Source: Planctomycetota bacterium
GTDB lineage: Bacteria; Planctomycetota; PLA2; JAEUHO01
Length of the DNA: 64,000 nucleotides
Direction: 5' to 3'
Assembly (NCBI GenBank): GCA_965222115.1
Contig: CBDCTJ010000007.1
Coordinates: 2,016,001-2,080,000, forward strand
In this document: positions 755 through 49,905 of the stretch, piece after piece
Position numbering within the stretch: position 1 is the stretch's first letter
Layout of the letters: each line of letters begins with the position of its first letter
Position numbers and translations under genes: made by a program
The notes under the pieces: generated by a model
Told to the model about the DNA's origin: nothing
What the model saw: the letters and a program-made list of their open reading frames with translations, nothing else
Databases searched by the model: none

Positions 755-877
755 TGTCACGCTCATCGTGACCATCGTACGTGCCTTAAGCAACACAGAT
801 GATTGTTCAATGCGAATTCGTTAGAATCATTCCGTTGGCTCATCACACCGTTCCCCATGATCAAAGAAGGGTTTCAC

Positions 878-3877: not shown

Positions 3878-3922
3878 GCGTGGGCCCATACGATTGGGAC
3901 CGCGCAGCGGACACGTGAGCAT

Positions 3923-4009
3923 TGGTGGCCTCGGTGGGAGTCGAACCCACACTCCCTTTACGGGAAACGGATTTTGAATCCGTCGCGTCTGCCATTCCGC
4001 CACGAGGCC
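3923..4009 (-). tRNA. tRNA-Leu(CAA)
   Basis: Acceptor GGCCTCG/CGAGGCC, anticodon arm ACGGA-TTCAAAA-TCCGT, long variable arm, GTTCGA T-loop, encoded CCA. Confidence 0.97.
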
Positions 4010-4119
4010 GTGTTGGAAGCGCCACAGAGTAGCGACAGCGCCCAGCGAATCCAGCCCTGCGGGCCAGAAAGGAGGTGAACCCACTCCCGGTATGATCGTT
4101 TCTACCACTGGAGGCACGC

Positions 4120-7197: not shown

Positions 7198-7251
7198 CAT
7201 TCGATGCCACCGCGTCGATCCAGCACTACCGCATGGCGGCGGTAGAGAATC

Positions 7252-10200
7252 GTGACTCGCTGGATTCTACCCCTGGCCGGTATCGTGACGGTCGCAGCCA
7301 TTATTCTCCTTTTCGATGGCCACTCGAGTCAAAACGATGTGCCTGAGACAACCGACTTTGAGCATGTTGCAGATTCTACACGTGCGCCCGAACTTCAAGG
7401 CACACTTGTTGCGGAGCCAGACGGCTACATCTCCAGCGAGTATGTCCAGGAGACGCAAACCAAGTCGCCCATGCGGGCCAAGTTCTTTGGTTCGGTCGTG
7501 GATCGCAAGTTCACGCCGGTGGTTGGCGCCGACATCACGGCAAGAATGCGCTCGGGCGTCGTTGCGACCACAACGACAAAGGGCGACGGATCGTTTTCCT
7601 TTGAGACCGAGGTTGTTCCGGGTGGTAATCGATTTGATGTCGGCACTGTGATTGCGCAAGACGCTTCAGGCGCTACGGGGTATGCCGAGTTTGAGGCGCC
7701 CGCACCTTGGCTCGTGCCGGAGATGGAGGGAGAGCGCGGTATTGCCATCCCAACGATTCGCCTTGAAGAACACGAAGGAGTCGTGTCGATTCGTGTGACG
7801 ACGTCATGCGATGGTGGGTTACCCGCCCGCGTGTATGTGGATGCGGGTGTAGGGCAACGAAGTTCGTTCGCTGCCCATTGGACAGATGCCGAGGGTCAAC
7901 TCACCATCCGCGGACTGGCACGAGGCAGTTATCGCTTCATAGCGGCGGCGCCAGGCTGTGGACGGGCGACTGCTTCCACAGTCATCGAGGACGACGAGCA
8001 TCGTCAGATGGACTTGAACATTCCTGTAGCTCGGACGGTTGTCGTTCGCGTCGTTGAGACGGGGACCGATACACCGGTTACCGACGCGCGCATTGCTGTG
8101 AATGAATGCACGGGACAGGAAGTCGCCAGTGGGACAGCGCGTATCTTGCCACTGAGCCCAAGCGTGTACGCCGATGAACATGGTGTTGCACAGATTGAAG
8201 GACTGGGTCCAAACGACTGTTTGTGGCTGCGTGCGTCGTCGGAGTCTTCTCGCGTAACGGCGGAGGAATGGACCAAGGTCGACGCGCACGCCACCGATGT
8301 CACGTTGGAACTACCACCGAAGCGCACAATCACGTGGGCGTTGATCGATGGGGGACACGGCATGCCGCCCGATGGCTCCAACGTGTCGCTGCTCAAGAAC
8401 GACCTCTCCCCCAAACCGACCTATCCCGATTCAGGCCTTGTTGAGGGCAATACGATTACGGTGACGGGATGGCCGCCCGGTGCCATCGAGGCCCAGGCGT
8501 ATGTTCGAGGCTTTGGCGCGGCACTCTTGCGTGCCGACGACGGTAAGGATCGAGGTCACAACGCGGCATTTTATCCATTGCGCACGATTCAACTCCTGGC
8601 GAAGGAAGCCGATGGATCGCCAGCGAAGGGTGCCACGTTCTTCGTTCGCTCCATGGGGCTCGCTGGGGGGACGTCCCAATCCCAGACCGACGATCAAGGG
8701 CGTGCCAAAGTTGAGGGCCTCTTTGGTGGTCCCGGAGCCATTGCGTACTGGAATGTGAGTCGCAGTAGCCTTCGTCGATCACCGCAGGCGCCTGTACGCG
8801 ATCACGTATCGATGGAACGCGGCGACGCCTCGGTCACCTATACGTTTCCCGCCAAGCGACGTGTGGTGGTAACGCTGCGCGTGGACGGTAAGGCGCCGCC
8901 ATCCGACATTGTGGGCACCGTGAATGTGTCGGCTCTCTACGCGCCGGGCAGTGGCTCTTCATCGAGTGTGACCCAACCCATTGAGGGCAGTAGCGCGGTT
9001 GACGTAGCGTTTGCGGTAGACGAAGGCGCCACGGCGTTTGTCGTTTCTGTGAGAGCACCGGGATACCAGCAAGCCGAAGCATGCGTTGTGCCGGTAACAC
9101 CGGACCTCGTCACGTATGCCGTCGTAGATCTCGAGCCTAGATTCGAAGCCGTCGTGCATGTCGAGACGCCCGAAGACTTCATGTTTCGGATTCAATCGAT
9201 GCCCTATCCCAAAGGGAAGAGTACGCCGCCGGTGATTCCGCAACCGACGTTTTGGTCCAACCGAACGCGTCGCACAAGTCCCCGAGCGGGAACGAAACAC
9301 GTTATGCGGCTCGAGGGGTTGGTCCCGGGTCGTCACATTGCCTACGACGCGTTGTCCGGCAAGATAAGTGAGCCGTTCGTCGTCGGAGGTGGCGGGAAGC
9401 CGCCCGAGGTGTCACTCGACTTGAGCCGTGCAGGATGGATCATGGGCAGAGTGATTCCACCGCCTGGCGAGAAGCTTGGGCATACCTCGGTTGCCGTGAT
9501 TGAGCGTCAGGTTCTTGGTGCCATACCCGGATTGAGACAGCCGCAGCCCGGCGCCTTCGTGAATCCGCAGACCGGGGAGTTCAGAGTGCGCTCCGATGGC
9601 GAGCGCCCGATCACACTTACCGCGCAATCGTCAAAGTATCGTCCGCATTCAACGCACGGACGCGTCACGGTTCGTGGACCTCGTACCGGTGTAGAACTTC
9701 GACTAGCCAAGGGTTCGCGTGCGACGATCCGCTTCGATCGCGTGCTGCGAACCGTACCGTTTTATTCGAGCAATCCGAGGGGAATCGTTTTCGCTGGCGA
9801 TAACCATCGCGACGCCGCGGGCCAAACCATTGCCACCCATGTCAGCGTCGTACTCACGTTCAGTACGGGTGAAACAAGACAGATTCGAGCAGACGTTTCC
9901 AAAGACGGTCGCAGCATCTCCTTTGGTGGCTACGCTCCGGGTCGTTACTCCCTCTGGATCGACGCCGCTCCGTTCAAACCGTTAGCTCTTTCGCGCATAG
10001 AACTCACTACGTCGGACCAGGATCTGGGCACGCATTCGCTTTCAGAAGGCGCGAACGTCGCGATCGACATTCCAAGCGACGAATTCGACAAGTACAAACC
10101 CTTCATCGCCCGCGCCATATCGACGACCGCGCCCTACTACATGCGTAATGTCTCCGTATCCGACGTCCCTCGCATCTCGCTCGCGGGTCTCGGTCCCGGC

Positions 10201-10302
10201 ACGTTCCGCCTTTCGGTACACAGCAGCTCCCGCCCCGACATCGCCCTCAATGAGACGATCACCGTCAACGGCTCCGAAACCATCGAGCGCACCCTCAAAT
10301 AG
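7252..10302 (+). CDS. Membrane-anchored carboxypeptidase-regulatory-like repeat protein
   Basis: N-terminal TM; collinear similarity to 4120..7197 (SCDxxLPARV, GWPP, LDLS.xGW..GRV, GYxPGRYxxWxD). Confidence 0.78.
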   Translation: MTRWILPLAGIVTVAAIILLFDGHSSQNDVPETTDFEHVADSTRAPELQGTLVAEPDGYISSEYVQETQTKSPMRAKFFGSVVDRKFTPVVGADITARMRSGVVATTTTKGDGSFSFETEVVPGGNRFDVGTVIAQDASGATGYAEFEAPAPWLVPEMEGERGIAIPTIRLEEHEGVVSIRVTTSCDGGLPARVYVDAGVGQRSSFAAHWTDAEGQLTIRGLARGSYRFIAAAPGCGRATASTVIEDDEHRQMDLNIPVARTVVVRVVETGTDTPVTDARIAVNECTGQEVASGTARILPLSPSVYADEHGVAQIEGLGPNDCLWLRASSESSRVTAEEWTKVDAHATDVTLELPPKRTITWALIDGGHGMPPDGSNVSLLKNDLSPKPTYPDSGLVEGNTITVTGWPPGAIEAQAYVRGFGAALLRADDGKDRGHNAAFYPLRTIQLLAKEADGSPAKGATFFVRSMGLAGGTSQSQTDDQGRAKVEGLFGGPGAIAYWNVSRSSLRRSPQAPVRDHVSMERGDASVTYTFPAKRRVVVTLRVDGKAPPSDIVGTVNVSALYAPGSGSSSSVTQPIEGSSAVDVAFAVDEGATAFVVSVRAPGYQQAEACVVPVTPDLVTYAVVDLEPRFEAVVHVETPEDFMFRIQSMPYPKGKSTPPVIPQPTFWSNRTRRTSPRAGTKHVMRLEGLVPGRHIAYDALSGKISEPFVVGGGGKPPEVSLDLSRAGWIMGRVIPPPGEKLGHTSVAVIERQVLGAIPGLRQPQPGAFVNPQTGEFRVRSDGERPITLTAQSSKYRPHSTHGRVTVRGPRTGVELRLAKGSRATIRFDRVLRTVPFYSSNPRGIVFAGDNHRDAAGQTIATHVSVVLTFSTGETRQIRADVSKDGRSISFGGYAPGRYSLWIDAAPFKPLALSRIELTTSDQDLGTHSLSEGANVAIDIPSDEFDKYKPFIARAISTTAPYYMRNVSVSDVPRISLAGLGPGTFRLSVHSSSRPDIALNETITVNGSETIERTLK

Positions 10303-10384
10303 CGTACGCCTGCGTGCCTGGCACAACTGTGTATGGTGGGCTGTCGAGAGTCGTCCAACGGTGTGCTACTCTCCGGATACCGAC

Positions 10385-11812
10385 ATGAACGAACGCCGAA
10401 CCGTATGCGCGCTCGCGATCGTAGCGCTACTGATCATAGGACTTGCGTGGCTATTGATGCGGGATGATGCGGTCGAGGTGCCCGAAGTCGTGACATCAGA
10501 CGTCGCGAGCGAACCCGCGGAACAACCGGTCGAGCTACTGTCCGGCGTTCCTGATGCACTTCGTAAGCAGAAGAAACCACCTGCGGAGAAGGCGCCCAAG
10601 AGTGCAAAGGAGACAACAAACGAATTGATGGGCATGTTGGGGGAGAAGCAGACCCCGCGCGTGCAGCCAGTGCCGAGCAAAGAACAACTCGACGAGATTT
10701 CGCTGTATGAGCCTGCGCCGCCCGGCGTGCTTATTGGCGCCGTGTTCGACGGCAAGGAACCGTTTTCGGACGGCGAAGCCGTTGTTTGGATGCAAGGAAA
10801 GAGTTTCGGCGCCAATGGGATTCCTGCAGGTGAGAAGCCTATTCGTGCTGTATCCCTTGGCAGCGACGGCGTGTTTCGCGTTGATGGGTTGGAGCCGGGC
10901 TACTACTACGTTGGCGTGCGTGCGCGCGGTGGGCCGCCTCGTCTTGGATTTCACAAACTTCTCGTTGGTCCGAAACCATCGCCGAAAGCGCTGTTCGTTC
11001 TCGGTACCGGTAGGCTGTTTGGAACGGTGTATGACGATCAGGGTCGTCCAGCGACCCATGTGTGGGTGCGTGCGTCTATGAGCGGAACCGCTGGGCGACT
11101 TGAGAGTACGTCGATTCAGCAGGTCCGCACCGATCGCGATGGCTCGTACTCGTTTGATCTTTTGCGTGCAGGCGGCGGTTGGCTTTCGGTTGCGTACTCC
11201 GGGAACTTCAATGACGACGCCACGACACCCTCACGGAAGTACTCGCTTCGCGTGGGACAGGAAAGACGGATCGACATCGGTACGCCACACGGCCTACGTA
11301 CGCTACGCGGGAACATCGTTACGGCGGGCGGCGTTCCCTTTCGAGGTCCGGGGAAGATCATAATTTCCGGTGGCGCGTCTCGGGGCTACGTCGTTACGCG
11401 CTATGCAGAAGATGGAACCTTTTCGCAAAAGCTCGCTCCCGGTGAATACAACCTCGCGGTGATGTTTCCCGACCCGACACGCCAACCCACGTCGGGCGGC
11501 AGATTCAACGTGAGGATTGGTGAGGAAGACGCAAGCACGACGATCACCATTCCGGGTACCCGGCTCACCGGTCGCGTCCATGATCGCGGCGGACGTGCCC
11601 CCCGCGCGACGAACGGTGTCACGTGGCGCACGCCCAAGAGTGCTTCTCTTCGCCTACGAGGATCTGCTCGTATTCGGGGCGACGGCACCTACACTATTGA
11701 CGGGCTCCCTCCCGCAACCTATCTCCTTCGTGCGCCCGGAAATGAAGTGGAAGTCGAAGTCGTCATTCGACCGGGCGATGAACGTGTAGCGCAAGACCTG
11801 GAAACACCGTAA
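10385..11812 (+). CDS. Membrane-anchored carboxypeptidase-regulatory-like domain protein
   Basis: ATG 10385 precedes a TM helix; GTVYDDQGRP, TDRDGSYSF, DGLPPATY motifs. Confidence 0.75.
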   Translation: MNERRTVCALAIVALLIIGLAWLLMRDDAVEVPEVVTSDVASEPAEQPVELLSGVPDALRKQKKPPAEKAPKSAKETTNELMGMLGEKQTPRVQPVPSKEQLDEISLYEPAPPGVLIGAVFDGKEPFSDGEAVVWMQGKSFGANGIPAGEKPIRAVSLGSDGVFRVDGLEPGYYYVGVRARGGPPRLGFHKLLVGPKPSPKALFVLGTGRLFGTVYDDQGRPATHVWVRASMSGTAGRLESTSIQQVRTDRDGSYSFDLLRAGGGWLSVAYSGNFNDDATTPSRKYSLRVGQERRIDIGTPHGLRTLRGNIVTAGGVPFRGPGKIIISGGASRGYVVTRYAEDGTFSQKLAPGEYNLAVMFPDPTRQPTSGGRFNVRIGEEDASTTITIPGTRLTGRVHDRGGRAPRATNGVTWRTPKSASLRLRGSARIRGDGTYTIDGLPPATYLLRAPGNEVEVEVVIRPGDERVAQDLETP

Positions 11813-13096: not shown

Positions 13097-14932
13097 CTAG
13101 ACACCTCGGAGTATCTTGATTTTGGTCCCTTTGAGGACCTTAGTGCCTGCCGCGGTGAACTGCTTCTTGATCTTGAAGCCGCCAAAGCCCAAGAGTTGCC
13201 ACTTGAGGCCCTTGGCGAGCAAGGCTTGCTTGGCTGCCGCCACAGTCATGCCTTTGACATTGGGCACCTTGACTTTGATCAGTTGACCCGGGATCAAGAC
13301 GAGCTTGAACTTGTAGGTCATCTTGACGGTCTTGCCGATTTTGAGCATGGTGCCAGGCGCGGGGCTCTGCGTCTTGACGACCTTCACACCCACACCGTTC
13401 GCGGGACCGAAGAACTGTGTCTTGAAGCCGGCAGCGACAAGCTTGTTCTTTGCCTTTGTGGTCGACAGACCAATCACGTTGGGCACCTTCTTTGTTAGGG
13501 GCAGGATGATCATCTTGAACTTATAGGTCATCTTGACGGTCTTGCCGACCGCAAGCATGGTTCCAGGCGCAGGACTTTGAGTCTTCACGACCTTCACGCC
13601 GACACCATTGGCGGGCCCAAAGAACTTCGTCTTGAAACCAGCGGCAATCATGATGTTCTTGGCCTTGCTCGTGCTCTTGCCAATGACATTCGGCACGGGC
13701 TTCTTGAGCTGCAAGATCAACGGCTTGTTCTTGTAGACAACCTTGACGTTGGATCCCTTAGCTAGGTAGGTACCCGCCGTGGGAAGCTGCGAAATGACCT
13801 GCGTGGTGAACATTGGCGAGGGCGCGGGACCACTCAAGACGGGCTTGAGCGACGCGGCCTGAACCTTCTGCTTTGCGGTGATCTTCTTGAGGCCGATCAC
13901 ATTCGGCATCTTCGCGACGTACGGAAGATAGAACGTGATGCGTGTTCCGGGATTGACGAGCGATCCAGGGGCACGACTCTGCTTGAAGATTCGCTTGATG
14001 TCGCGATTGGGACCAAGCGCCTTACGCTTCTTGTAAAGCAGGCCACGGGCAAGCAACGCCAAGCGCGCTTCATTGGGCTTCATGCCACTCAGATTGGGAA
14101 CTTTGGACTTAGCCATGGACGGGGGCTTGACCGCAACAATGATTGTTACATCGCTACCGTAGCCAACAATCGAACCCGAAGCGGGCGACTGCGAGAACAC
14201 GCGCCCCTTGGGCCAGTTCGAGATTTTGCGAACGATGCTCACGCCAAAGCCAAAGGCTTCCAAGTGCGACGCCGCCGCAGCTTCCGACAAACCGCGCACG
14301 TAGGGGACTCGTGCTTGCGTGGGAATCTCAATCGGCTTGGCGATCTCAATGCGCACTTCGGTGCCAAGCGGAAGTTCGGTGTTGGGCGCCTGATCCTGGG
14401 CGATCACAGTGTTGGGTGTGCGATCGGCTGCCGAAACGAGGAAAAAACGTGGCGTGAAACCAAGTTCAACCAACGCGAGCTCAGCATCGGCCATGGAACG
14501 ACCCAAGAGATCGGGCATGACCGCCATGGCCAAGTCGCCTTCGTCTCCAGGCAGTTCCGGATCAGGAAATTGATCTTCGCCGCCCGGTACGGGGGCTCCG
14601 CCATCCGGTGCACCGGCATGTTCAATCACTCGCAAGACTACCTTTGAGCCGCGCAGTATCTCGCTGCCACTCTTGGGATCTTGACCAATGACCGTACCGG
14701 GCGCTGCCACGTCATCATTGACGTGAACGATCTCGGCTTCGAGTTCTCGCTCGCTGAGGAGGGTGAGCGCGTCGGCTTCACTCTTCCCAATGAGCCCGGG
14801 GACTTCGGTGGTGTTGTCTTCACTCGCGTGAACGGGGTGAATCACCAGGGTTAGTAAACACAGTGCTGCGAGTGTCGATGTAACGGACTTTCGCAGCGCG
14901 AAGGATCGAGTCGGGGTATTGAGGCGGGACAT
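13097..14932 (-). CDS. Exported multi-PASTA-domain protein (8 PASTA repeats)
   Basis: Signal peptide ending VHA; eight (V/M)PxxxG..xxA repeats with Q.P..G signatures; GGAG RBS. Confidence 0.85.
   Translation of the reverse strand: MSRLNTPTRSFALRKSVTSTLAALCLLTLVIHPVHASEDNTTEVPGLIGKSEADALTLLSERELEAEIVHVNDDVAAPGTVIGQDPKSGSEILRGSKVVLRVIEHAGAPDGGAPVPGGEDQFPDPELPGDEGDLAMAVMPDLLGRSMADAELALVELGFTPRFFLVSAADRTPNTVIAQDQAPNTELPLGTEVRIEIAKPIEIPTQARVPYVRGLSEAAAASHLEAFGFGVSIVRKISNWPKGRVFSQSPASGSIVGYGSDVTIIVAVKPPSMAKSKVPNLSGMKPNEARLALLARGLLYKKRKALGPNRDIKRIFKQSRAPGSLVNPGTRITFYLPYVAKMPNVIGLKKITAKQKVQAASLKPVLSGPAPSPMFTTQVISQLPTAGTYLAKGSNVKVVYKNKPLILQLKKPVPNVIGKSTSKAKNIMIAAGFKTKFFGPANGVGVKVVKTQSPAPGTMLAVGKTVKMTYKFKMIILPLTKKVPNVIGLSTTKAKNKLVAAGFKTQFFGPANGVGVKVVKTQSPAPGTMLKIGKTVKMTYKFKLVLIPGQLIKVKVPNVKGMTVAAAKQALLAKGLKWQLLGFGGFKIKKQFTAAGTKVLKGTKIKILRGV
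13304..13696. repeat. Intragenic 210-bp-period tandem duplication (PASTA 6 and 7)
   Basis: FFGPANGVGVKVVKTQSPAPGTML..GKTVKMTYKFK occurs twice; DNA near-identical at offset 210. Confidence 0.9.
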
Positions 14933-24326: not shown

Positions 24327-26876
24327 TTACCGGTTGATGCGTACAATCTCCGAGACGGATCCGTCGCTGTAGGTGAGCCGGACGGTCGCATACGTCGTAG
24401 CCGCCGGGACCGTGAGATAGAGCGTGGCCTTGGTGGGGTCGATCGCCATGGGATTCTTGGGATCGACGGGGGGAATAGGGAAGTCCTGGCTCGGGTCCCC
24501 GTTGAGGCCGTACTCGATGCGTTTGAGCGACGCGCGATAGCTCATCAGCATCGAAAAATAGAGCAACACCCTGCCATCATAGTCTCGAAACATAAGCCAT
24601 GAGTTCTTCATGGATTCGAGAATGTTCTTTTGATTTTTGAGCTGGTGTGCCTGTGGATTGAAACGGATCGCAAAAGGCCCTCGCTCACGATCGCGCGCAT
24701 CGACATACTTGACGTACAGCGTAGTGGCTTTCGTGTCCATAGGTAGCGAGATGAGTAGGTTGGGCTGCGGTTTTCCGGTGCGCGCGTCAGGCGTATTCGA
24801 AAGGCCCGTTACCTTGTATGGGCCGTCTTTCGTGCCCTGGCGCCAGGACATCGTCTTGGCCAACTCTGAGATAACAAAGTACACCGACCACCCCGCGTTA
24901 CTCTGGGTCGTGGTGATCGAAACCGGGGATTCGAACAACGTGGCAGGTATTGCGCGCAACGTCGCGAGGCGAACCTGTGCATCTTGTATGTGTTTCGCTG
25001 CCTCGCTCTGATCCAAGTAGTGTTTCAGGAAGGCGCCTTCATCGCGAAGTTTGAAGAAGTTTTCCAGGTACTCCTTTTCTTTGCCCTTTTCCCACAGCGT
25101 CTGCGAGCCGAGGCGCGCCGCCGAATATTCCCTACTGAGTTCGTATTGTGCAGGTGCAAATGTGGGGTGCTTGGCCGCGTAGTCTTCGAGTGCCTTCGTC
25201 CTTCCTTCCGCAGGCAACAAAAGCATCCACGCAAACTCGGTAACCGGGTTCTTCGATACGTCTTTCATGGCGGAATACACTTCGCGCGCTCCCGCCGGTC
25301 CCTGCTGCACTTTCAGTAAGCTCTGATACTTCAAGTGCGGGTCCACGAATCCGAGGTCCGGAAACGTAAAAAACTTGCGATACGACTCCATGGCTTTCAC
25401 CGTGTCACCTCGACTCTGATACACACGCGCGTTGTGATAGTGAGCCGACGGTCGGTTAGCGTCCGCAATGACGCCGCCTTCTTTGAGCAGTGCCGCAAAG
25501 CCGGTTTTTAGTTCGTCGAGCGATTCCGCCACGCGCTCGCTGGTCTTGGCGGCCGATTCGGCGGCAGTCTTCGCAGCATCCGCAGCCGCCTTGGTCTCAT
25601 CGCTCGCCGCTTTCATCGTTTCTGCAGCATCGGCAACGCCTTTGCGAGTTTCCTCGGCCGCCTTCTCCACACGATCGGCGGTTTCTCTGCTGGTGGTGGC
25701 GGCGTCGGCTGCGGCCTTGCGTGCTTCCTCGGCCTTGTCTCGTGTCTCATTCGTGGCGACTTCCGTACGCTCACTCGCTTTGCGCGCATCCTCGGCACTC
25801 TTCTTCGTTTCGTCGCCCTTGATAAATAGGAAGTACGACACGCCCAGCAACGCCAAGATGCCCGCTGCAATGCCCCACAGCTTTGCGTCCATGCCTTTGG
25901 TTCGCGCTGCGACAGTCTTTGTGTCTTCAGCGATGCCGTCGAGTCGTCCTTCAACCGACGAGCGAAACGCGGCGATGTCATCGCGCACTTCTTGCACATC
26001 CTCGCGCAAGTTCCCGATGTATTCCTCCAAGATATCGTCGCTTACATCGAGGTAGGTGGAGGGATCCACCTTCACGTCGCCTTGATCATGAGCCGTCTGA
26101 ACCGGGCCGACGATTTCCTCGTAGTAGAGATCCATCAGTGACAGTTGGGTGGGCGTAACCTGCTTGTTGTGCGCCATGGTATTTCGAATGCGTCGCACGT
26201 CGTCCAAGAAGTAGCGAATCGTCTTTCTTCGTTCTTTCAGAAGGGTCAAGAACGGCGTGTCTTCATAAATCGGTTCGTAGCGTTCAAACTCCTCTTTATT
26301 GACAAAAAGCGAAGCTAGATCACTAAACGAAAGTCCGCTCAAAATGTCATTTGGATCGGCCTGCTGGATACAACGCTCGGCAGCTTTGCTGCTCAGTGCC
26401 TCACGAAGTCGATCCGTGAGTTGGTCTTGGTCGTTGTAGCTATCGGTAATGAGCGAGCGCACAATGAGCTCGAGCGCGCGCACCTTCTTTTGGCCAAGAT
26501 TTTCCGAGATCAATGCATCAATCGACGCGTCCACAAATTGCTTGGAAGAAGCCCGTTCTGCAGTTTCCAGCCAAGACAACAGTCGAAATCGAGCCAGCCG
26601 TCGATTCCGTGCCGACGCCGCGGTCCCCTTGCCTTCGTGGGCCATTTCCGTGCGCTCGGCATCGCGCATCGCGGTCTCCAGGCCCTTCACTTCGTGCTCG
26701 TTCAAATTTAGCGCGTCCGCCGGTTTCGCGGTTCCGGATTCTCCCTTGGTGCGAAAGTAGCCACGTACCGCATCCGGAATACTCGACGCCACCACGGCCA
26801 TTTCTGGGGCGAGCGCAATCGTGAGTCGGTGAATGGCCTTGACGATGAGCGGCTCGATCGTTTCAGAGGAAGACAT
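24327..26876 (-). CDS. HEPN (STY4199-like) domain protein with TM helix, coiled-coil stalk and extracytoplasmic TPR-like/beta domains
   Basis: R-x4-H motif RNTMAH (26169-26186) in context FLDDVRRIRN; TM LWGIAAGILALLGVSYFLFI; Ala/Glu/Lys/Thr-rich stalk; ATG 26876 with GGAGA RBS. Confidence 0.72.
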   Translation of the reverse strand: MSSSETIEPLIVKAIHRLTIALAPEMAVVASSIPDAVRGYFRTKGESGTAKPADALNLNEHEVKGLETAMRDAERTEMAHEGKGTAASARNRRLARFRLLSWLETAERASSKQFVDASIDALISENLGQKKVRALELIVRSLITDSYNDQDQLTDRLREALSSKAAERCIQQADPNDILSGLSFSDLASLFVNKEEFERYEPIYEDTPFLTLLKERRKTIRYFLDDVRRIRNTMAHNKQVTPTQLSLMDLYYEEIVGPVQTAHDQGDVKVDPSTYLDVSDDILEEYIGNLREDVQEVRDDIAAFRSSVEGRLDGIAEDTKTVAARTKGMDAKLWGIAAGILALLGVSYFLFIKGDETKKSAEDARKASERTEVATNETRDKAEEARKAAADAATTSRETADRVEKAAEETRKGVADAAETMKAASDETKAAADAAKTAAESAAKTSERVAESLDELKTGFAALLKEGGVIADANRPSAHYHNARVYQSRGDTVKAMESYRKFFTFPDLGFVDPHLKYQSLLKVQQGPAGAREVYSAMKDVSKNPVTEFAWMLLLPAEGRTKALEDYAAKHPTFAPAQYELSREYSAARLGSQTLWEKGKEKEYLENFFKLRDEGAFLKHYLDQSEAAKHIQDAQVRLATLRAIPATLFESPVSITTTQSNAGWSVYFVISELAKTMSWRQGTKDGPYKVTGLSNTPDARTGKPQPNLLISLPMDTKATTLYVKYVDARDRERGPFAIRFNPQAHQLKNQKNILESMKNSWLMFRDYDGRVLLYFSMLMSYRASLKRIEYGLNGDPSQDFPIPPVDPKNPMAIDPTKATLYLTVPAATTYATVRLTYSDGSVSEIVRINR

Positions 26877-26878
26877 CG

Positions 26879-28870
26879 TTATTTCTCCGTGAGTGCGATT
26901 GCGCCATCCCAAGAATCGGAAGGCGGATCGTCTCGATAGGCTCCGGCTGCCTGTGCGTGGAGAGTGTACCCCTTTTCACCGGGCTGACCACGCCGTTCGA
27001 ATGCAAGGGCTTGAAAGCGCTCTTCGGCCCTCTCGAACGCCCCTGAATAGAAATCACGAAACGCGTCGTCCGCTCGCAATGCCAGCGCGGTGGCATTCGT
27101 ATCGTCGGCAACAAAGAACACTTCGATGGGTGCGTTGCGTCCAACGGCCCGGTACTTGCCCAAGGGGACGAGCTGGCTACGAAGCGGCTCACCTGTTGCA
27201 CGCGCGACTTCATTCGTAACAAGAATCGGCGCGCCCAGCGCTTTGGTCATGCCCTCAAGCCGCGATGCAGTGTTTACCACATCGCCCAACACGGTATACG
27301 AGCGGCGCTGTGGTGAACCCACGAGTCCGGCAATCACGTTGCCCGTGTGCACGCCAATGCCCGACCGGAACGGCCCCACGCCATCGGTCAAGAACCGATT
27401 GAAACGTCGCAGTTCTTCTTGCATAAACATTGCGGCGTGCAAAGCGCGATCGGCGTGGTGCATCGCGTCGTCACTTGCAGGAAAGAACGCCATCACGGCA
27501 TCGCCGATGAACTTATCCACCCGCCCTCTGTAGTACTCGACGCAGCGCGTCATACAACCGAAGTAGCGATTGAGTGTTGACACCAGCCGCTCGGCTGGCA
27601 AGCGTTCCGTAATCGTTGTAAATCCGCGCAGGTCGCAAAAGAGCACGGCCGCCTCTTCGCTGTGACCTTGAAACCCGTCTTGTCCGCCCTCCGTGAGCAG
27701 GCGTGCAATTTCCGCATGACCCACAAATCGACCGCTGCTATGTAGCATCCATGCATGCCGGTCAAAGGCTTTGAGCTTCTCATCGAGCCGCTTGCGCATT
27801 TCGTCGGCCGATGTCGCATCCAGTTCACGCAGCGCTTCGCGGATCAAGTCGGCTGCCAAACGTGCATCACCCGCGCGCATTGCCACATCGGCATTCGCCG
27901 CCAAGAGCGTCGCGCGATCGATCGGCGTAGTTTGGATCGCACGAGCGAAATGCGCGCGCGCTGCATCGAATGCGCTCAACGCTTCATCAATCTGCCCGAC
28001 ATCGGCAAACAGCGCCGCTCGTACTTGACTCGCCATTCCGCTCACATGGGGAAGGTCTGCGACGACAGCGCGATCTAGCTCGTCAAGTGCGTCGATATGT
28101 TCTCTTGCCTCTGCCACTCGACCCACGCGCTGCTCAAGGATGGCCAAGTGCACACGTGCAAACGCTTGCGATACCTCATCGCCTGTCGACTCCGCCAGAT
28201 GTTGGGACGCCGTCAACGCGTCGCGCGCGACATCGTGTTCGTGGCACTCGTAGTTGGCTACACCGATTTGTGTAAGGAGCGTGCACTTCAGTGATGTTGC
28301 GTCTGGCGCATGCTCAGCGACATGACGGTAGTCGTCTTCCAAATGCTGAATCGCGGCAGGGAAATCGCCAACCGCCATACACAACCGCCCCAGGTTCCCT
28401 TGCGTTAGCGCGATCCCGTGGATGTCACCCACGCGCCCCTTGGTTGCGAGTGCACGTTCAAAGGCGCGGCGCGCATCGTGAAGTAGCCCTTGGTGATGGA
28501 GGAGTTGGCCCATAGTGTCAAGCACGCGTCCCGCGTAGGCATCGGCGTATTCGGTTTCGTCCTGATCCAAGAGTTCCATACTGCGATTCAAAAACGTTGA
28601 AGCCGACAACACATTGTTTCCAGCGCGCCACGCCGCGGTTGCGCGCAGATGCATGACGACGCCGCGTGCGAACGGTGTTGACACAGCACCCGCACGTTCC
28701 GCGTCATCAAGGAAAGGCAGCAACACGGTTGTGGCGAGGATTGGATCACTGGCGATGGCGAGTGCGGCGCGAATCCGTTCGTCGAGCGATGCGACCAGCG
28801 GATCGTTGGCGTTTGTGAGTCGTTCGCAGACGCGGACGCGCGTCCGAGCGTCGATGCCAAGTTCCGTCAT
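26879..28870 (-). CDS. TPR-repeat class III adenylate cyclase
   Basis: LFCDLRGFT, DKFIGDAVMA, GIGVHTG, YTVLGDVVNTASRLE (Lys/Thr specificity residues indicate ATP); N-terminal TPRs; start uncertain (28870-28954). Confidence 0.88.
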   Translation of the reverse strand: MTELGIDARTRVRVCERLTNANDPLVASLDERIRAALAIASDPILATTVLLPFLDDAERAGAVSTPFARGVVMHLRATAAWRAGNNVLSASTFLNRSMELLDQDETEYADAYAGRVLDTMGQLLHHQGLLHDARRAFERALATKGRVGDIHGIALTQGNLGRLCMAVGDFPAAIQHLEDDYRHVAEHAPDATSLKCTLLTQIGVANYECHEHDVARDALTASQHLAESTGDEVSQAFARVHLAILEQRVGRVAEAREHIDALDELDRAVVADLPHVSGMASQVRAALFADVGQIDEALSAFDAARAHFARAIQTTPIDRATLLAANADVAMRAGDARLAADLIREALRELDATSADEMRKRLDEKLKAFDRHAWMLHSSGRFVGHAEIARLLTEGGQDGFQGHSEEAAVLFCDLRGFTTITERLPAERLVSTLNRYFGCMTRCVEYYRGRVDKFIGDAVMAFFPASDDAMHHADRALHAAMFMQEELRRFNRFLTDGVGPFRSGIGVHTGNVIAGLVGSPQRRSYTVLGDVVNTASRLEGMTKALGAPILVTNEVARATGEPLRSQLVPLGKYRAVGRNAPIEVFFVADDTNATALALRADDAFRDFYSGAFERAEERFQALAFERRGQPGEKGYTLHAQAAGAYRDDPPSDSWDGAIALTEK

Positions 28871-29048
28871 GAGATTGTCAAGTGTCTTCACAACGCGAAG
28901 CCTAATCGTCCTAGCCGCAGTTCCGTCACATTCGTCTTGTACGCCGCGTCCCACCGCGTCCGCGAGAGGCTATTTGTCGTAGGCTAGGTGTCTGCCAACG
29001 AAGGAGAGCTCCGTGATCACCATTAGGATCGAGTCAAAGCGCGCGAAA

Positions 29049-30599
29049 ATGGCCTCGCCGCTAATTCGAACATGTGTCCTATTTCTAGCGCTCATTGCGA
29101 TCTCCATCGGATTGCCAGCGTGTGGGGGCGGTGGTGGTAGCGACACGACTGAATTGCCAATTGGGGAGCTGCGCGTGTTTGGCATGAGCGGGGAGGCGTT
29201 GCCGGGCCCGACAGCTGGAAACTTTGCGCCGTTTCCTGCCCAGCCGGTGATGGCCGCGGCGGAGAACGGATGGTCGGCACTGGTCGCACCGACAGACGTT
29301 GTGGCCGCGCCCAATGTGTTGCTCGTCATGGAGCCCGATGGCAATGTCGTTGAAGTTTGCGCGGAGGGTGACGCGGCATTGGCGCCCAGCGACGGAACAA
29401 TATCAGGCTTCCTCGCGGTTTGGATGGCGCCCGATGGTCGCGTCACCGCGTTGGTCACGATCACTGGCGATTCGCTTGTTGCACCGGGGCCACGTACGTT
29501 TGCGGTCATATCGGCAGAGATCGCGGGTGGTGTGGTGATGAACAAGATGGCCGTGATCACCGAACACGACGACGTCAACACTACACCCGACACCCTCGTT
29601 TCGATTGATCCATCGACGATGGTTGTTAGTGATCTAGGCGAGCTGTGGTTCATGGGCGTTACAAGCGCCGACGCCGACCAGGATCTGTTTGCGGTCAGCG
29701 CCGACGGCGCAACGATTCGCGAGATGGCCGTCGTGGGGGGATCGCTACCGAGTGGCGCGGGCACAATCCAGTCGGTGGACGCGTTTGGCATTGATCGCGA
29801 AGCGAAGTTCGTCGCCTTCGTCGCCGACGCGTCACTAGCCGCGGAACGACGACTGTATCTGACCGACGCAACAGCCGGCGGCGCTCCGGTCTACGACGAG
29901 CTGGCTCAGGACGGAGAGTTGCTTATCAACGAACCGGGGTCGATCAACGACGTCCACACGGGCGGGCCGATTCTCCTCGACTCGCTCGGAACAGTTGCAT
30001 GGCTGGCCGAAGGCACGCAGGGTGCCACGGATGACATGATATTGCTCACCAATGCCGTTGCTGCTGGCCCCGGTGTATTCGCCAGGACGGGTGACGAGGC
30101 ACCTCTGACCGCGGGTGGGACTTTTGGCGACTTGAACCTGCTCCGGCAAAGTCCCAATGTTTCTCTGCCCACGTTTACCGCTGAAGTCTCAGGCGGCACG
30201 ATTGACTTCGCGACGTATCAGCTCATATCCCAAAACAGTGCAGTTCCCCCCGCGATTTCAATATTCGATGGGCGCCCCGCGCCTGGACCCGTCAACGGTG
30301 GACTGTTTGGGACAACGTTTCCCGGACTCGATCAACCGCCCTATCAACACGTCGCTCGCAACGGTTCCTTTGCCTTTGCGCAGGTATTAACGAACGGCGA
30401 GACGGGGCTATTTTGGTTGGTGCCATTCGTGGGACTCTTCGACATTGCGATCGAGGGCCAGCCATCGCCGGTTGCAGGACAGACGTTTGAGACCTTTAAT
30501 GCCGCGCCGCCCCAGGGCGCCACCACCGCGAATGGCCAGGTGCTTTTCCGCGCAGAACTAACCGGCGGGCTGACGGGCGTTTTCCGCCAGGGCCCCTAA
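29049..30599 (+). CDS. Acidic lipoprotein, probable beta-propeller repeats
   Basis: Lipobox LPAC followed by Gly linker; repeats ending NGSFAF, NGQVLF, GTVAW. Confidence 0.65.
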   Translation: MASPLIRTCVLFLALIAISIGLPACGGGGGSDTTELPIGELRVFGMSGEALPGPTAGNFAPFPAQPVMAAAENGWSALVAPTDVVAAPNVLLVMEPDGNVVEVCAEGDAALAPSDGTISGFLAVWMAPDGRVTALVTITGDSLVAPGPRTFAVISAEIAGGVVMNKMAVITEHDDVNTTPDTLVSIDPSTMVVSDLGELWFMGVTSADADQDLFAVSADGATIREMAVVGGSLPSGAGTIQSVDAFGIDREAKFVAFVADASLAAERRLYLTDATAGGAPVYDELAQDGELLINEPGSINDVHTGGPILLDSLGTVAWLAEGTQGATDDMILLTNAVAAGPGVFARTGDEAPLTAGGTFGDLNLLRQSPNVSLPTFTAEVSGGTIDFATYQLISQNSAVPPAISIFDGRPAPGPVNGGLFGTTFPGLDQPPYQHVARNGSFAFAQVLTNGETGLFWLVPFVGLFDIAIEGQPSPVAGQTFETFNAAPPQGATTANGQVLFRAELTGGLTGVFRQGP

Positions 30600-30706: not shown

Positions 30707-30796
30707 GGAGAGGTGGCCGAGCGGTCGAAGGCGCGTGCTTGGAAAGCACGTATACCCTCACGGGTATCGCAGGTTCAAATCCTGTTCTCTCCGCCA
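30707..30796 (+). tRNA. tRNA-Ser(GGA)
   Basis: GGAGAGG acceptor, anticodon arm CGTGC-TTGGAAA-GCACG, long variable arm, GGTTCAAATCC, encoded CCA. Confidence 0.97.
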
Positions 30797-32926: not shown

Positions 32927-33430
32927 CCCGTTCCCGTATCCGCTTCGGGTTCAGAAGAGCATTTTGAGCACACACCCAATTCTCATCCAAAGTGCTCAGC
33001 GTCGTTTTGATGAGGACGGCCACGATATCCAAAGACATCGAGAGGGCGCCCTTAGGGCTGCTTCCGTCAGGACCTGACCCGGTTCGAGGCCATCAACCCT
33101 CTGGGTCGTGACCGTCCTCTACAAAACGAGTGGGGTGACATTACGACACCTGAGCATCCTTGTCCCATCCGGTCGCAGGTGAACTTGCTGCCACAATCGA
33201 GGCCACTTGACCCCTGCGTGACACCGGGTGACACCGAAAATTGGGGATTTAACACCCAAATGGGCTCTTAGAGAGCCAATTCCCTGGATCTGTGTCCCGA
33301 TCGTGCGCTACAGTGAGGATTGCGGCCACTCATCTAGGGCTCAATTGAGCGCCAACCGGTGCCTGTAAGCACATGGTAAGTTGTTTTTACATAGCAACTT
33401 ACGAAAATGACCCTTCCTGGGGTTTCCAGG

Positions 33431-44305: not shown

Positions 44306-45382
44306 TCAGTATAAGAACCTAAAGGCGATCTGCGGAGCGATTGCTTTGGAGGCCGAGTAGTTGGTGTCGTCATTGATTGTGGTCGACTGGGATGAAGACT
44401 GCGCGCTCTGTATGAGTTTGATTCCCGCGAGTTCGAGTGCAGGCGCTACCGATACGGTCCGAATGTTTGCGCCGATTGCGCCAAGTGTTGGAGTCTGCAC
44501 TACGATAAGCTCTGACGCCAAATTCATGATCTTGCTATAGGAGAGGAGCTCGCTGTTGGGCAAATCAAGTATACTGAGGATTGCAGCAGTAAACAGACCA
44601 TGTTTCGGTCCCTCAAACGCGAGTTCATTTTCCGCTGCTGCAGACATTGCAATGAGGTTTGCCTGAATCGGAATGAGTCTCCCGCCTCTTCTAATGGGGC
44701 CTGACGGAATCTTACCTTGCAACAAAAGCGACGCGATTGCGTCGTCCGCGGCCCGCGTTAGCGGCGCCCGTGGGATCGCAGTCCCGCTTTCGTCGATCCC
44801 CGTCATGAGCAGATAGTTCTTAGTCGCATCTATTCCTCCAGGAATTCGAACAGGCGGTCGCTTCGCAATCTGATCGAAGTCGATTGAAATTCCTCGATCC
44901 TGTGGAGCTGCTCCCGTGAGTTGAAGGGGACGCCTCTCATCATCAATAACACCGGCAGCGAAACACGCGTCAGTCACAACAACTACTTCACAATCTTTGG
45001 GGATCGAAACAAGTTTGTTGTGTATAACGTCGTCGAGCAGGACGCCATCGTGGAGACACCAGGCTTCGTCCCAGCCATCTCTGTCTGTGGCCACACCACG
45101 AAGGCTCAGTCCGTGACCCGCGAACGTAATCATCAACAAGTCACCTGGAATTAGCCGCTCGATTGTCGCGTCAATGACATTCTCTACGTTTTCTAGAGTC
45201 GCGTCGTCGCCAAGTACAACCCGAGCTGAGCATCCGACATCATTCGCCCAGTCGCGCATTGCCCGCGCGTCGTTCTCCGCTGATGAGAGTGAAGGCAGAT
45301 AACCCAAGAACACATCGTTAGACACCTCGTTTATACCGATGTGAATCGACCGGCCTTCGTTCCAGGACTGTCTGCGGCTCAT
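44306..45382 (-). CDS. Metacaspase (peptidase C14)
   Basis: IGIN, NDA, AT, FAGHG (His), DEAW, TDAC (Cys), p10 motifs SAA..E.A.E..HGLFT, QTP. Confidence 0.88.
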   Translation of the reverse strand: MSRRQSWNEGRSIHIGINEVSNDVFLGYLPSLSSAENDARAMRDWANDVGCSARVVLGDDATLENVENVIDATIERLIPGDLLMITFAGHGLSLRGVATDRDGWDEAWCLHDGVLLDDVIHNKLVSIPKDCEVVVVTDACFAAGVIDDERRPLQLTGAAPQDRGISIDFDQIAKRPPVRIPGGIDATKNYLLMTGIDESGTAIPRAPLTRAADDAIASLLLQGKIPSGPIRRGGRLIPIQANLIAMSAAAENELAFEGPKHGLFTAAILSILDLPNSELLSYSKIMNLASELIVVQTPTLGAIGANIRTVSVAPALELAGIKLIQSAQSSSQSTTINDDTNYSASKAIAPQIAFRFLY

Positions 45383-45447
45383 CGTTTTTAACTTCAAGAG
45401 CGACAGTTCGGGATGTGGTCAAATTTCGCTAGTCTTGCCTTCATCGA

Positions 45448-45735
45448 CTAGACCTTCACTACAACTAGAGTGTAAGGCCCAGCTTTGCCATTTGATCGAA
45501 TTACCTCTAGAACTGAGTGCGCAGCCACCGTAACGTCGTAGCTGTGCTTCTTAGCATCTCCTCCCACAAATTCATAAATATTTTCTTCGTCAAGAGTCAT
45601 CTGCACGTCCACCTTTCTGTTGCTGTTGAAATACTTTATTCGTACATTTGTATCTTCCCCTAGATCATTTTGCCAAAGCTCGTGTTCATCGTTGTCATCG
45701 GTCTTAACTCTGAGCGTATTTAGTATTTCTGACAT
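45448..45735 (-). CDS. Small hypothetical all-beta protein (95 aa)
   Basis: ATG with GAGGGA RBS; AT-rich ORF co-oriented within the operon. Confidence 0.7.
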   Translation of the reverse strand: MSEILNTLRVKTDDNDEHELWQNDLGEDTNVRIKYFNSNRKVDVQMTLDEENIYEFVGGDAKKHSYDVTVAAHSVLEVIRSNGKAGPYTLVVVKV

Positions 45736-45751
45736 CTTTGGTGTCCCTCTC

Positions 45752-46582
45752 TTATCGGTCTTTGAAACCGTAGTCGATTAGAATTGGCTCGTCTTTGTCA
45801 GGAGTCGGGCTGTCGCTATGAAGCACGGCGTACTTTCGAAATTCATTGACTGAATAAGGCAAGTCGTGAAGGCCCCAAGTGGCGAATTCCACGTCATCGG
45901 GTCTCCATTGGGTAAACACGAGCCTGGTTCTCACGTATTCAGTGGCAGGAGTAGGAAGCCCCTCGGGCGATGAGCCAGGCGCGGCGTATCCGTTGATTTG
46001 GCCGGGTCGATAATGAAGCCAAATCTCTCGTCCGCCCTCATCCGGTACCCATACCCAAGCTGTTAGCTTCTTATCGTCCGGGCCGAACAGGGGGAGTTGA
46101 TGAACTGCATACGCTTGTCCCTTTTCGAGCTTGTGTCCGTCTCGATTGCCGCCAGGAAATGACGGAGCGGAGGGCCTAGCTACCGTGCACGTCCAGTTGG
46201 CAGAGTTATCATCTACGTTGTGCTTTAGTTTCCATTCCTTCGACGCGTGTGCGCAAAATGCTTCAAGAGTCTCCGCATCTGTAATGGAATGTCCGCTTGG
46301 TATCGAAAACGCATTCGAGTCTGCGACCTTGTCTATGTAAAGAGCTTCACCCGAGGACACATTCGAAAATCGGGATGCCGCGCCGCCCGGATCCTGTGTC
46401 CTATACGCCCATAGTTCGTCCGAAGTTATCGGTCCGTCTGACCAGGCCATTGCTGTATAGAATTGGGGGCGCGGGTCATTTGAGGGGCCTACGCTCAGTT
46501 CGAAGATCCCCTCGTCGATTTGCGGTCCCCGAGCGTCGTCGGATGCGCTACCACGAGCGCGATAGGTAGGGAATTTCCTCAT
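45752..46582 (-). CDS. Hypothetical protein with an apparent internal duplication
   Basis: ATG 46582 with GAGGA RBS; TAMAW..DELWAYR vs TAWVW..REIWLHYR. Confidence 0.7.
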   Translation of the reverse strand: MRKFPTYRARGSASDDARGPQIDEGIFELSVGPSNDPRPQFYTAMAWSDGPITSDELWAYRTQDPGGAASRFSNVSSGEALYIDKVADSNAFSIPSGHSITDAETLEAFCAHASKEWKLKHNVDDNSANWTCTVARPSAPSFPGGNRDGHKLEKGQAYAVHQLPLFGPDDKKLTAWVWVPDEGGREIWLHYRPGQINGYAAPGSSPEGLPTPATEYVRTRLVFTQWRPDDVEFATWGLHDLPYSVNEFRKYAVLHSDSPTPDKDEPILIDYGFKDR

Positions 46583-46613
46583 ATTCGAGTCCTCATGCTC
46601 CAGATCGTTCAAA

Positions 46614-49787: not shown

Positions 49788-49905
49788 GAAACGGCGGTGC
49801 CCCACGAGCGTTGATTCGAGGCACGTACGGTTGGCCCCGACAGATCACATCGAGGCGTGATTGTGTTCAATTGAAGCCTTTAGAGCAAGAGGGTTGTGGG
49901 ATCCG

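Follow-up and report, generated by a model that had tools for sequence, protein, structure and literature searches.

The window analysed here, a 64,000-nucleotide stretch of a Planctomycetota contig, carries two neighbouring genes on its minus strand, to which all feature coordinates below refer. The first (26879..28891) encodes a TPR-containing class III adenylate cyclase of 663 aa if translation begins at the ATG at 28870. Translation may instead start 7 codons upstream, at the GTG at 28891; we keep this codon as a possible start because the resulting 670 aa equal the size of the closest listed homologue (P0181). The second gene (24327..26876) encodes an 849 aa single-pass receptor with a HEPN domain of the STY4199 type. 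The junction (26876..26888) has the operon-like layout described in an earlier note on this DNA: the cyclase stop codon TAA (26881-26879) is followed by 2 nt and then by the receptor ATG (26876), and a GGAG (26888-26885) sits within the final codons of the cyclase, 8 nt ahead of this ATG. Such a layout suggests translational coupling of the two genes. The terminal Glu-Lys of the cyclase, which is conserved and provides the GGAG, was dropped as evidence for coupling, as it also ends the L008 cyclase, whose gene is the downstream one of its pair. Promoter and terminator scans remained at chance level. A mobile island was rejected: GC content is ordinary, and relative to a nearby tRNA gene both genes are found on its 5' side.

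In the structure model, the receptor starts with a cytoplasmic helical bundle (residues 1-112, 26541..26876), which was found in every STY4199 protein seen and for which a structural search returned generic helical-bundle matches only. The HEPN domain follows (about residues 119-269, 26070..26522). The earlier note had named a HEPN profile search in advance as a check on this assignment, and Pfam HEPN_STY4199 (PF18729) matched residues 55-272 with an E-value of 5.3e-39 (134.7 bits against a gathering cut-off of 25). The top structural match was the HEPN structure 2hsb, with a middling Z of 8.3 (rmsd 3.0, 99 residues aligned); Foldseek with the HEPN model gave no match at E <= 0.001. This domain is the most conserved region of the receptor (0.79 versus 0.44-0.66 elsewhere). 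Its R231-x4-H236 catalytic motif (26169..26186) is intact, as had been read from the sequence, and nearly invariant in the homologue alignment: the Arg and the Asn are present in 56/56 aligned homologues and the His in 54. The receptor HEPN domain, whose motif and fold are intact, is a predicted RNase.

The modelled HEPN domain is followed by a long cytoplasmic juxtamembrane helix (residues 280-329, 25890..26039), likely a coiled coil, and by a single transmembrane helix in N-in orientation (residues 334-352, 25821..25877), located by hydropathy and charge bias. In 52 of 53 homologues, the N side of this helix carries the more positive net charge, so that the HEPN domain is predicted to be cytoplasmic, in agreement with the receptor topology first proposed. 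On the other side of the membrane, an extracytoplasmic stalk rich in Ala, Glu, Lys and Thr (residues 353-458, 25503..25820) leads to the ectodomain; the distance from the end of the transmembrane helix to the first conserved ectodomain motif ranges from 50 to 159 aa across the 53 homologues.

The ectodomain was expected to combine TPR-like and beta elements, and the structure model (pLDDT 97) contains both. Its helical part (residues 459-650, 24927..25502) gave TPR structural matches with Z of 10-12. It is followed by tandem beta-sandwich domains (residues 652-739 and 762-848, 24330..24923), which we assign with moderate confidence to the fibronectin-III/Ig-like type. Foldseek on the ectodomain model retrieved EPO, IFN-gamma and other cytokine-receptor ectodomains with E-values of 1e-4 to 1e-3 and TM-scores by target of 0.3-0.43, together with phage FnIII proteins. 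The fibronectin-III label is drawn from Foldseek only, since TPR matches fill both VIA lists and the beta domains were searched only jointly with the TPR part. No significant repeat was detected when the sequences of the beta domains were compared with each other (E 0.17), and the ectodomain matched no Pfam family at the Pfam cut-off. When solved structures were searched by sequence with the receptor alignment, only weak TPR and coiled-coil matches came up. In Atlas searches with homologues, the ectodomain matched unnamed clusters (0.98 and 0.96), and the HEPN receptor gave nothing above 0.75.

The cyclase has a cytoplasmic TPR array (about residues 69-370, 27761..28666; Pfam TPR_12, E 3.6e-13, and TPR_MalT) that is homologous in a Pirellulaceae cyclase only 24% identical to it; a single weak hydrophobic segment occurs at residues 36-54, and no other. 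The catalytic domain (residues 404-578, 27137..27661; Pfam Guanylate_cyc, E 1.2e-21) contains the key residues D413, K453, D457, T526, N533 and R537. The metal-binding D413 and D457 and the transition-state N533 and R537 are conserved in 54/54 members of the cyclase family. The ATP-specifying pair is kept in 52 (K453) and all 54 (T526) of them, and aligns with the same residues of the solved adenylyl cyclase 5x4t. Lys at the first of these positions is a mark of adenylyl cyclases and Glu a mark of guanylyl cyclases (PMC4215837). These residues bear out the earlier reading of an ATP-type class III cyclase, with cAMP as its predicted product. The best 120 matches listed include 50 near full-length relatives (P0181-P0230).

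The pairing is not unique to one genome, a possibility that the earlier note had singled out for checking. Besides the window, the two genes adjoin in 11 of 28 genome loci, with the cyclase first in 7 and the HEPN gene first in 4. The intergenic gap is -4 to +4 nt in 10 of these loci and 51 nt in the remaining one (L001), and their cyclases are only 22-46% identical to that of the window. The flanks differ: the pair represents the sole genes in common within 10 kb in 5/10 locus pairs compared. Linkage of the cyclase and receptor genes thus exceeds chance. Six further pairs of HEPN and cyclase clusters have longest contigs of equal size, an indirect sign of linkage. One may still regard the pair as two independent signalling genes that have a promoter in common and are co-inherited, with no mechanistic coupling. 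Ten of the eleven linked loci belong to Planctomycetota, so that descent explains much of the pattern, and members of either family also turn up with no known partner, among them 33 related TPR cyclases. However, the link persists where the gene order has changed and the flanks are completely reshuffled, it is present in the gammaproteobacterial record L008, and cyclases elsewhere are fused directly to the same ectodomain; we therefore consider this reading decidedly unlikely. The cyclase and receptor trees have 9 of 14 splits in common and are largely congruent, which may merely reflect common descent.

Association with the cyclase is not obligatory. The cyclase is absent from 17 of the 28 loci, indicating that the receptor is able to exist alone. 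As an example, eight loci of alphaproteobacterial type encode a complete ectodomain and an intact motif without such a cyclase in the locus DNA searched. One locus without a cyclase (L003) falls inside the cyclase-linked clade, but its contig ends within the gene. Linked and unlinked receptors differ at only 4 conservative cytoplasmic positions, and a search for residues that mark the linked receptors revealed no dedicated cyclase-docking patch in the cytoplasmic part. Complex prediction with HEPN residues 1-330 and the whole cyclase scored 0.00 in two runs with no folded controls, and counts neither way. HEPN toxins usually come with a partner gene. The pair could accordingly resemble a toxin-antitoxin system in which the TPR-cyclase would bind and restrain the membrane HEPN RNase, cAMP reporting its release or being incidental; start and stop codons that overlap or nearly so in both gene orders would suit the fixed stoichiometry of such a system. 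The existence of intact receptors without a cyclase argues against this possibility. Furthermore, the partner is not an MNT nucleotidyltransferase as in HEPN-MNT pairs but a TPR class III cyclase with invariant cyclase residues, and the catalytic His is not followed by the tyrosine that we take to be the AMPylated site in those pairs. A toxin-antitoxin relationship is very unlikely.

A feature overlooked by the earlier note, and newly recognised here, is the distribution of the ectodomain. In a set of 149 representatives, it follows a membrane helix in proteins with kinases (25), HEPN (10), TIR (5), DUF4062 (4) and cyclases (2), and 11 are fused to caspases. A transmembrane helix separates enzyme and ectodomain in 45/46 representatives with a cytoplasmic enzyme; caspase and CsgG fusions, mostly with signal-peptide-like N-termini, also place the ectodomain outside. 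In three proteins (P0153, P0176 and P0365) the same ectodomain is joined through a transmembrane helix directly to a class III cyclase, indicating that signalling from ectodomain to cyclase recurs. Judged from these architectures, the ectodomain appears to be a widespread and swappable sensor.

TIR, caspase and HEPN, which also make use of the ectodomain, are enzyme types commonly met in conflict systems, and this speaks for a role in defence or cell death. In an antiphage abortive infection system, the TPR array or the ectodomain would sense phage, the cyclase would make cAMP, and the HEPN RNase would kill or arrest the cell, triggered either by phage directly or by cAMP bound at a so far unrecognised site of the N-terminal bundle. 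Several observations fit such a role besides the use of the ectodomain by TIR, DUF4062 and caspase domains. A wide structural search of the HEPN model also lists AbiA, AbiF, Csm6 and HEPN toxins; a NERD-helicase is encoded some 5 kb upstream in one locus; and the cyclase domain matches PADLOC PycC at 6.4e-26, although this score reflects generic class III homology through the shared domain (our cyclase tree contained no PycC sequence). In the parts of the literature consulted, regulation by adenine derivatives is suggested for a CBS-HEPN defence protein (PMC13092281), and a Myxococcus defence island is controlled by a periplasmic TPR sensor (PMC11506125). The genomic data point the other way. 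The flanking genes are housekeeping genes; 9 of 117 flanking proteins match PADLOC, mostly through generic methyltransferase, ATPase, helicase and aminotransferase families, and neither the window nor any of the 10 loci scanned showed the context of a defence island. Plasmid and phage collections contain no full-length relative, only the enterobacterial HEPN type, and no match to the ectodomain was found among plasmids. Neither gene evolves faster than its neighbours, and the ectodomain is conserved. GC and codon position values, which match those of neighbouring genes, likewise weigh against abortive infection, as does the lack of a cNMP-binding domain by Pfam. We regard abortive infection as unlikely, and a phage defence role for the pair is not supported. 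The antiphage role is the part of the earlier interpretation that found no support, with generic flank matches, congruent trees and ordinary rates all against it; the operon, the topology, the HEPN domain, the ATP-type cyclase and the distinction from Pycsar all stood.

That distinction follows from domain content. No cNMP-binding Pfam family matched either protein at E <= 1, and none of the fold searches of receptor residues 1-330 and 454-849 listed a cNMP-binding fold. The gene next to the cyclase encodes neither a CNBD-TIR nor a 3TM effector but the HEPN receptor, with no PADLOC effector match. As no cNMP-binding domain was found in these searches, the pair is not classed as Pycsar. Pycsar and Pucsar (PMC11224242; bioRxiv 10.64898/2026.08.12.744502) likewise pair the gene for a class III cyclase with that for an effector that may be toxic. 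In contrast to the window pair, their effectors are of the CNBD-TIR or 3TM type and are activated by cCMP, cUMP or cGMP, their cyclases differ in the base-specifying residues from the window enzyme with its TPR array and ATP-type Lys/Thr pair, and the window context is no defence island.

Taken together, the predictions describe what appears to be a single-pass inner-membrane protein, with HEPN inside and a TPR and two-beta-sandwich part outside, that has long been coupled to a soluble TPR adenylate cyclase. The reading we favour, to which we give about an even chance, is a conserved two-gene module for envelope sensing, in which an IRE1-like receptor RNase and a cAMP output would belong to the same pathway. 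The nearly invariant catalytic residues of both enzymes count for such a module, and flanks of housekeeping genes, trees that largely agree and rates in the ordinary range are in line with stable signalling. In HEPN RNases, the dimer forms a composite active site. In the periplasm, the ectodomain would bind a ligand that is a protein or belongs to the envelope; binding would dimerise or rearrange the receptor through the stalk, the transmembrane helix and the juxtamembrane helix, and the HEPN dimer would then build its active site and cleave RNA at the membrane, with slower growth or altered expression as the outcome, in the manner of IRE1. The cyclase would provide a second output, cAMP, of the receptor pathway. 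Either the receptor or a common cytoplasmic partner would most likely switch it by way of the TPR array, and the cAMP would act on cellular cAMP receptors and not on HEPN. The cyclase would be an accessory component, some lineages keeping only the receptor. As the trigger, a general cue from the envelope or from cell contact is more likely than phage specifically.

A broader proposal, which we put forward tentatively and consider possible but rather doubtful as a whole, is that the locus represents an undescribed family of bacterial single-pass receptors. One conserved ectodomain, with its TPR part and tandem fibronectin-III-like domains reminiscent of cytokine receptors, would be wired interchangeably to HEPN RNase, Ser/Thr kinase, TIR, DUF4062, nucleotide cyclase or secreted caspases. 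The window locus would be its IRE1-like member, turning an outside ligand into RNA cleavage inside and into cAMP via a docked TPR cyclase, and all versions would read one common signal of envelope damage, contact or invasion. If true, bacterial signalling would gain a modular receptor class that parallels IRE1, Toll-like and cytokine receptors, and in Planctomycetota the sensing of the envelope would be linked with RNA decay and cAMP. The cyclase, TIR and kinase fusions would allow ligand and activation screens through cAMP, NAD+ loss and phosphorylation, transferable to the RNase version.

Several known systems share elements of this organisation. Eukaryotic IRE1 (lumenal sensor, transmembrane helix, kinase and KEN/HEPN RNase) is likewise a single-pass protein that has its sensor on the outer side and a HEPN-fold RNase in the cytoplasm. 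It has a kinase within its chain, whereas Pfam finds none in the window receptor (where the ectodomain is combined with a kinase, this is in other proteins), and its sensor is unrelated to the window ectodomain; the likeness is one of analogy, not orthology. The EACC1 two-gene system also combines a transmembrane component with a partner carrying a caspase or, in fewer cases, a cNMP cyclase. Its transmembrane domain is small and the C-terminus of its partner highly variable, whereas the window pair has a large receptor-enzyme as its transmembrane protein and a cyclase of constant architecture; no EACC1 Pfam match was obtained at E <= 1 in the window proteins. DdvA of Myxococcus xanthus, as far as described in the portion of PMC11506125 consulted, is also a single-pass sensor with a periplasmic TPR-containing domain and is dimeric, but it contains a CHAT domain, lacks both RNase and cyclase, and acts through the release of a sigma factor by proteolysis. 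The DS-11 CBS-HEPN defence protein is a HEPN RNase with proposed adenine nucleotide regulation; it has a CBS ligand-binding domain, and no membrane helix or cyclase partner was found in the part of PMC13092281 consulted.

The closest relatives are the STY4199-like membrane HEPN proteins (PF18729), which share the helical bundle, the HEPN domain and the single transmembrane helix with the window receptor. In the sections of PMC3710099 consulted (Anantharaman et al. 2013), this family was predicted to consist of inner-membrane RNases responding to surface stimuli, with an analogy drawn to Ire1, and section 15 predicts stimulus-dependent RNA decay. The outside part of these proteins is different and about 200 aa long, against about 500 aa in the window receptor, and no cyclase partner was found described in the main text of that paper, as far as consulted. 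We found no experimental test in the literature of RNA degradation driven by surface signals for this family; with its intact RNase motif, high-confidence ectodomain model and conserved cyclase partner, the window locus offers a clean test case. Upstream of four enterobacterial STY4199 genes, no sigma-28 motif occurs within 300 nt, the start used for one of them (L027) being too far downstream. The proteins encoded by these four genes have lost the catalytic His (replaced by Q, Q, V and A), which is kept in the clade of the window receptor.

Both open reading frames of the pair lie on the minus strand of the window, the cyclase gene ending at 26879 and the receptor gene running from 26876 to 24327 (849 aa), with a stop-to-start spacing of 2 nt, in agreement with an earlier note that had described two minus-strand genes with such a junction. 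An alternative GTG start at 28891 may apply to the cyclase; the resulting 670 aa equal the length of the closest homologue among the matches listed. The earlier note had proposed a HEPN profile comparison, and Pfam HEPN_STY4199 matched the receptor at 5.3e-39; the cyclase matched TPR repeats and Guanylate_cyc (1.2e-21). No whole-protein name was found for either protein in NCBIfam or PADLOC, and the PADLOC PycC match to the cyclase was confined to the shared catalytic domain. A 528-aa lipoprotein-like gene (29013-30599, plus strand), divergent from the cyclase and about 120 nt away, had no match in Pfam, NCBIfam or PADLOC and no relative in the compared loci.

Residues 1-330 of the receptor were modelled (pLDDT 88.5) as a helical bundle, the HEPN domain and a 50-residue helix directed toward the membrane. 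In a wide structural search with this model the top match was a HEPN protein (Z 8.3, rmsd 3.0, 99 residues aligned), and AbiA, AbiF, Csm6 and HEPN toxins were also retrieved; Foldseek returned nothing significant. HEPN is the most conserved region of the receptor, R231 and N232 being kept in 56/56 aligned homologues and H236 in 54/56, so that the R-x4-H motif is intact as first described. A single TM helix is predicted, its N side more positive in 52 of 53 homologues, consistent with the cytoplasmic HEPN previously proposed; stalk length ranges from 50 to 159 residues among these 53. In enterobacterial STY4199/STM3604 genes (L027:10007-11485, L028:9845-11485, L029:7596-9182 and L030:7593-9182), which occupy a core site of the chromosome close to yhjD, R-N is kept and the catalytic His is replaced by Q, Q, V or A (4/4 examined). 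To judge from sequence, these proteins are possibly pseudo-RNase receptors; the family was classed as active in 2013.

The metal-binding and transition-state residues of the cyclase are invariant in 54 family members. The ATP-type Lys and Thr singled out by the earlier note hold (K453 in 52/54, T526 in 54/54) and recur in the solved adenylyl cyclase that is the best PDB match (4.3e-27), with which the catalytic residues agree. The product is likely to be cAMP, as read from these residues and the available part of PMC4215837. Upstream-type cyclases form one supported clade (25 rows). Another 33 TPR cyclases of this family (within P0194-P0230), one of them named from a myxobacterial-type record, fall outside this HEPN-linked clade and may be paired with other receptors.

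Scanning the species genomes once for receptor homologues gave 28 loci. Synteny, which the earlier note had suggested examining, proved not to be unique to this genome: in 11 loci the receptor gene directly adjoins a gene for a related TPR cyclase, which lies upstream in seven Planctomycetota and downstream in three Pirellulaceae and one Sedimenticolaceae record, with an intergenic gap of -4 to +4 nt in ten and 51 nt in one. The Pirellulaceae cyclase is 24% identical to that of the window, yet homologous across the TPR and catalytic parts. In 5/10 compared locus pairs, cyclase and receptor were the sole genes in common, as judged from codon-score gene calls that may miss some genes; the other five were close relatives with common flanks. 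Indirect signs of linkage come from six further HEPN/cyclase cluster pairs whose longest contigs are of equal size and from one frameshifted record reading from cyclase into HEPN. The cyclase is absent at 17/28 loci, which disfavours obligate coupling: 11 are alphaproteobacterial-type (8 with a complete ectodomain), 3 Rhodospirillales-type with a plain TPR ectodomain, 2 enterobacterial, and in one, L003, the contig stops within the gene. For 17 pairs, of which 12 were observed side by side and 5 were matched indirectly by longest contig, the two gene trees had 9/14 splits in common, which shows co-inheritance, not co-evolution, because kin share genes. That the two genes are co-inherited and uncoupled seems quite improbable to us; direct cyclase-TM-ectodomain fusions exist, and this is our best argument for placing the neighbouring cyclase in the receptor's pathway. 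An antitoxin-like restraint of HEPN by the cyclase appears more doubtful still. A few records may be mislabelled: L010 and L013, Flavobacteriaceae by label, cluster with alphaproteobacterial loci and have neighbours in common with them, and L003, labelled Miltoncostaea, is placed within the Planctomycetota clade.

What is most novel here is the modular ectodomain. Residues 454-849 were modelled (pLDDT 97) as TPR-like helices, with TPR structural matches at Z 10-12, and two beta-sandwiches, reproducing the outer TPR-like plus beta domain described earlier. The sandwiches resemble cytokine-receptor and fibronectin-III domains in Foldseek with modest scores, so this model-based label is provisional. 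Residues 463-675 gave 422 matches among 1.84 billion representatives; the best 150, apart from P0003, were classified, and 148 of these 149 were scanned with Pfam. Cytoplasmic enzymes were carried by 46 (25 Ser/Thr kinase, 10 HEPN, 5 TIR, 4 DUF4062, 2 class III cyclase), with a TM helix before the ectodomain in 45 and the whole TPR plus two-beta unit in 43. An N-terminal multi-TM anchor only was present in 48/149, and the others comprised 11 caspase, 1 CsgG, 1 DUF1353 and 42 other proteins or fragments. A second search yielded 215 proteins, including many from Mesorhizobium and a Chelatococcus cyclase fusion; an Atlas search gave unnamed clusters only. Swapping runs both ways, since HEPN occurs with different ectodomains.

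In the enzyme-less carriers (P0034, P0325, P0375 and relatives) the conserved N-terminal anchor consists of two or three TM helices. Such carriers are frequent in Mesorhizobium, where they bear the name methyl-accepting chemotaxis protein although they have no listed Pfam domain; they are possible co-receptors or decoys. Three loci (L024:609-4593, L025:5173-13850, L026:9821-13925) encode an STY4199 HEPN-TM protein whose long ectodomain is plain TPR, and in each of them a small gene and an M48 peptidase come next; L025 also has an AAA_16 ATPase upstream and a 303-aa gene overlapping the HEPN start.

The earlier note had suggested a phage challenge; the genomic data do not support an antiphage role. 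The window flanks are housekeeping (2-oxoacid oxidoreductase, methyltransferase, TrkA, EamA, dcw cluster), GC is ordinary around the pair, and its closest named homologues come from Planctomycetota. Among 117 flank proteins (7 from the window, 110 from 10/11 linked loci, L011, almost identical to L007, being omitted), nine matched PADLOC at 1e-5; Pfam identified seven of these as a methyltransferase, permease, ABC ATPase, aminotransferase, DEAD helicase, PASTA protein and a NERD-helicase; the last, found in L006, may be a genuine defence gene. The pair evolves at its neighbours' rate, with identities of 96-97% vs 88-97% in L007/L011 and 61-67% vs 48-73% in L002/L006; a preprint, in its accessible part, reports faster evolution of immune than of physiological cyclases (bioRxiv 10.64898/2026.08.12.744502). 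The ectodomain showed no hypervariability in the locus comparisons, and no full-length relatives were found in the plasmid or phage collections searched. Together with the listing of the Salmonella relative STM3604 under motility and chemotaxis in one row of a table (PMC11000858, available part), these data favour stable signalling. The range of enzymes partnering the ectodomain keeps a defence role open, and we consider an antiphage system unlikely.

We give about an even chance to the pair being a receptor RNase that senses the envelope and is coupled to a cAMP output. The architecture, the motifs and the gene linkage are shown here; in the proposed mechanism the ectodomain would bind a ligand, the receptor would be activated as a dimer, its HEPN would cleave RNA and a signal would pass from receptor to cyclase. 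In line with the earlier note, Pfam detected no cNMP-binding domain in either protein. No cyclase-specific patch was seen on the receptor's cytoplasmic part. STY4199-family membrane HEPNs are predicted to be Ire1-like, stimulus-dependent RNases (PMC3710099, accessible text), and the pair is a new version of this already predicted receptor type. By the tests in the available parts of PMC11224242, PMC7159879 and PMC8195603, the locus is neither Pycsar, as the earlier note had recognized, nor HEPN-MNT nor EACC1; DdvA and DS-11, in the accessible texts, offer analogy only. In listings and partial texts that cover few subscription journals, the literature on STY4199, STM3604 and HEPN/cyclase/TPR/membrane/Planctomycetes gave no description of this pair or ectodomain.

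Elsewhere in the window, a single minus-strand run (44306-49805) encodes a caspase, a 286-aa protein without assigned function and a 1063-aa Ser/Thr kinase, a possible conflict system. GC is lower (about 0.52) at 44-47 kb within this run, which lies inside a 17-kb stretch that interrupts the dcw cluster, with ftsW (43083) on one side and murG (60837) on the other. A plus-strand run at 38-11812 encodes five large proteins that carry CarboxypepD_reg repeats, including two paralogues (28% identity); a 611-aa protein at 13097-14932 (minus strand) has an N-terminus resembling a signal peptide, together with eight PASTA repeats. Two tRNA genes and a small SRP RNA occupy 3926-4009 (minus), 30707-30793 (plus) and 33015-33113 (minus).
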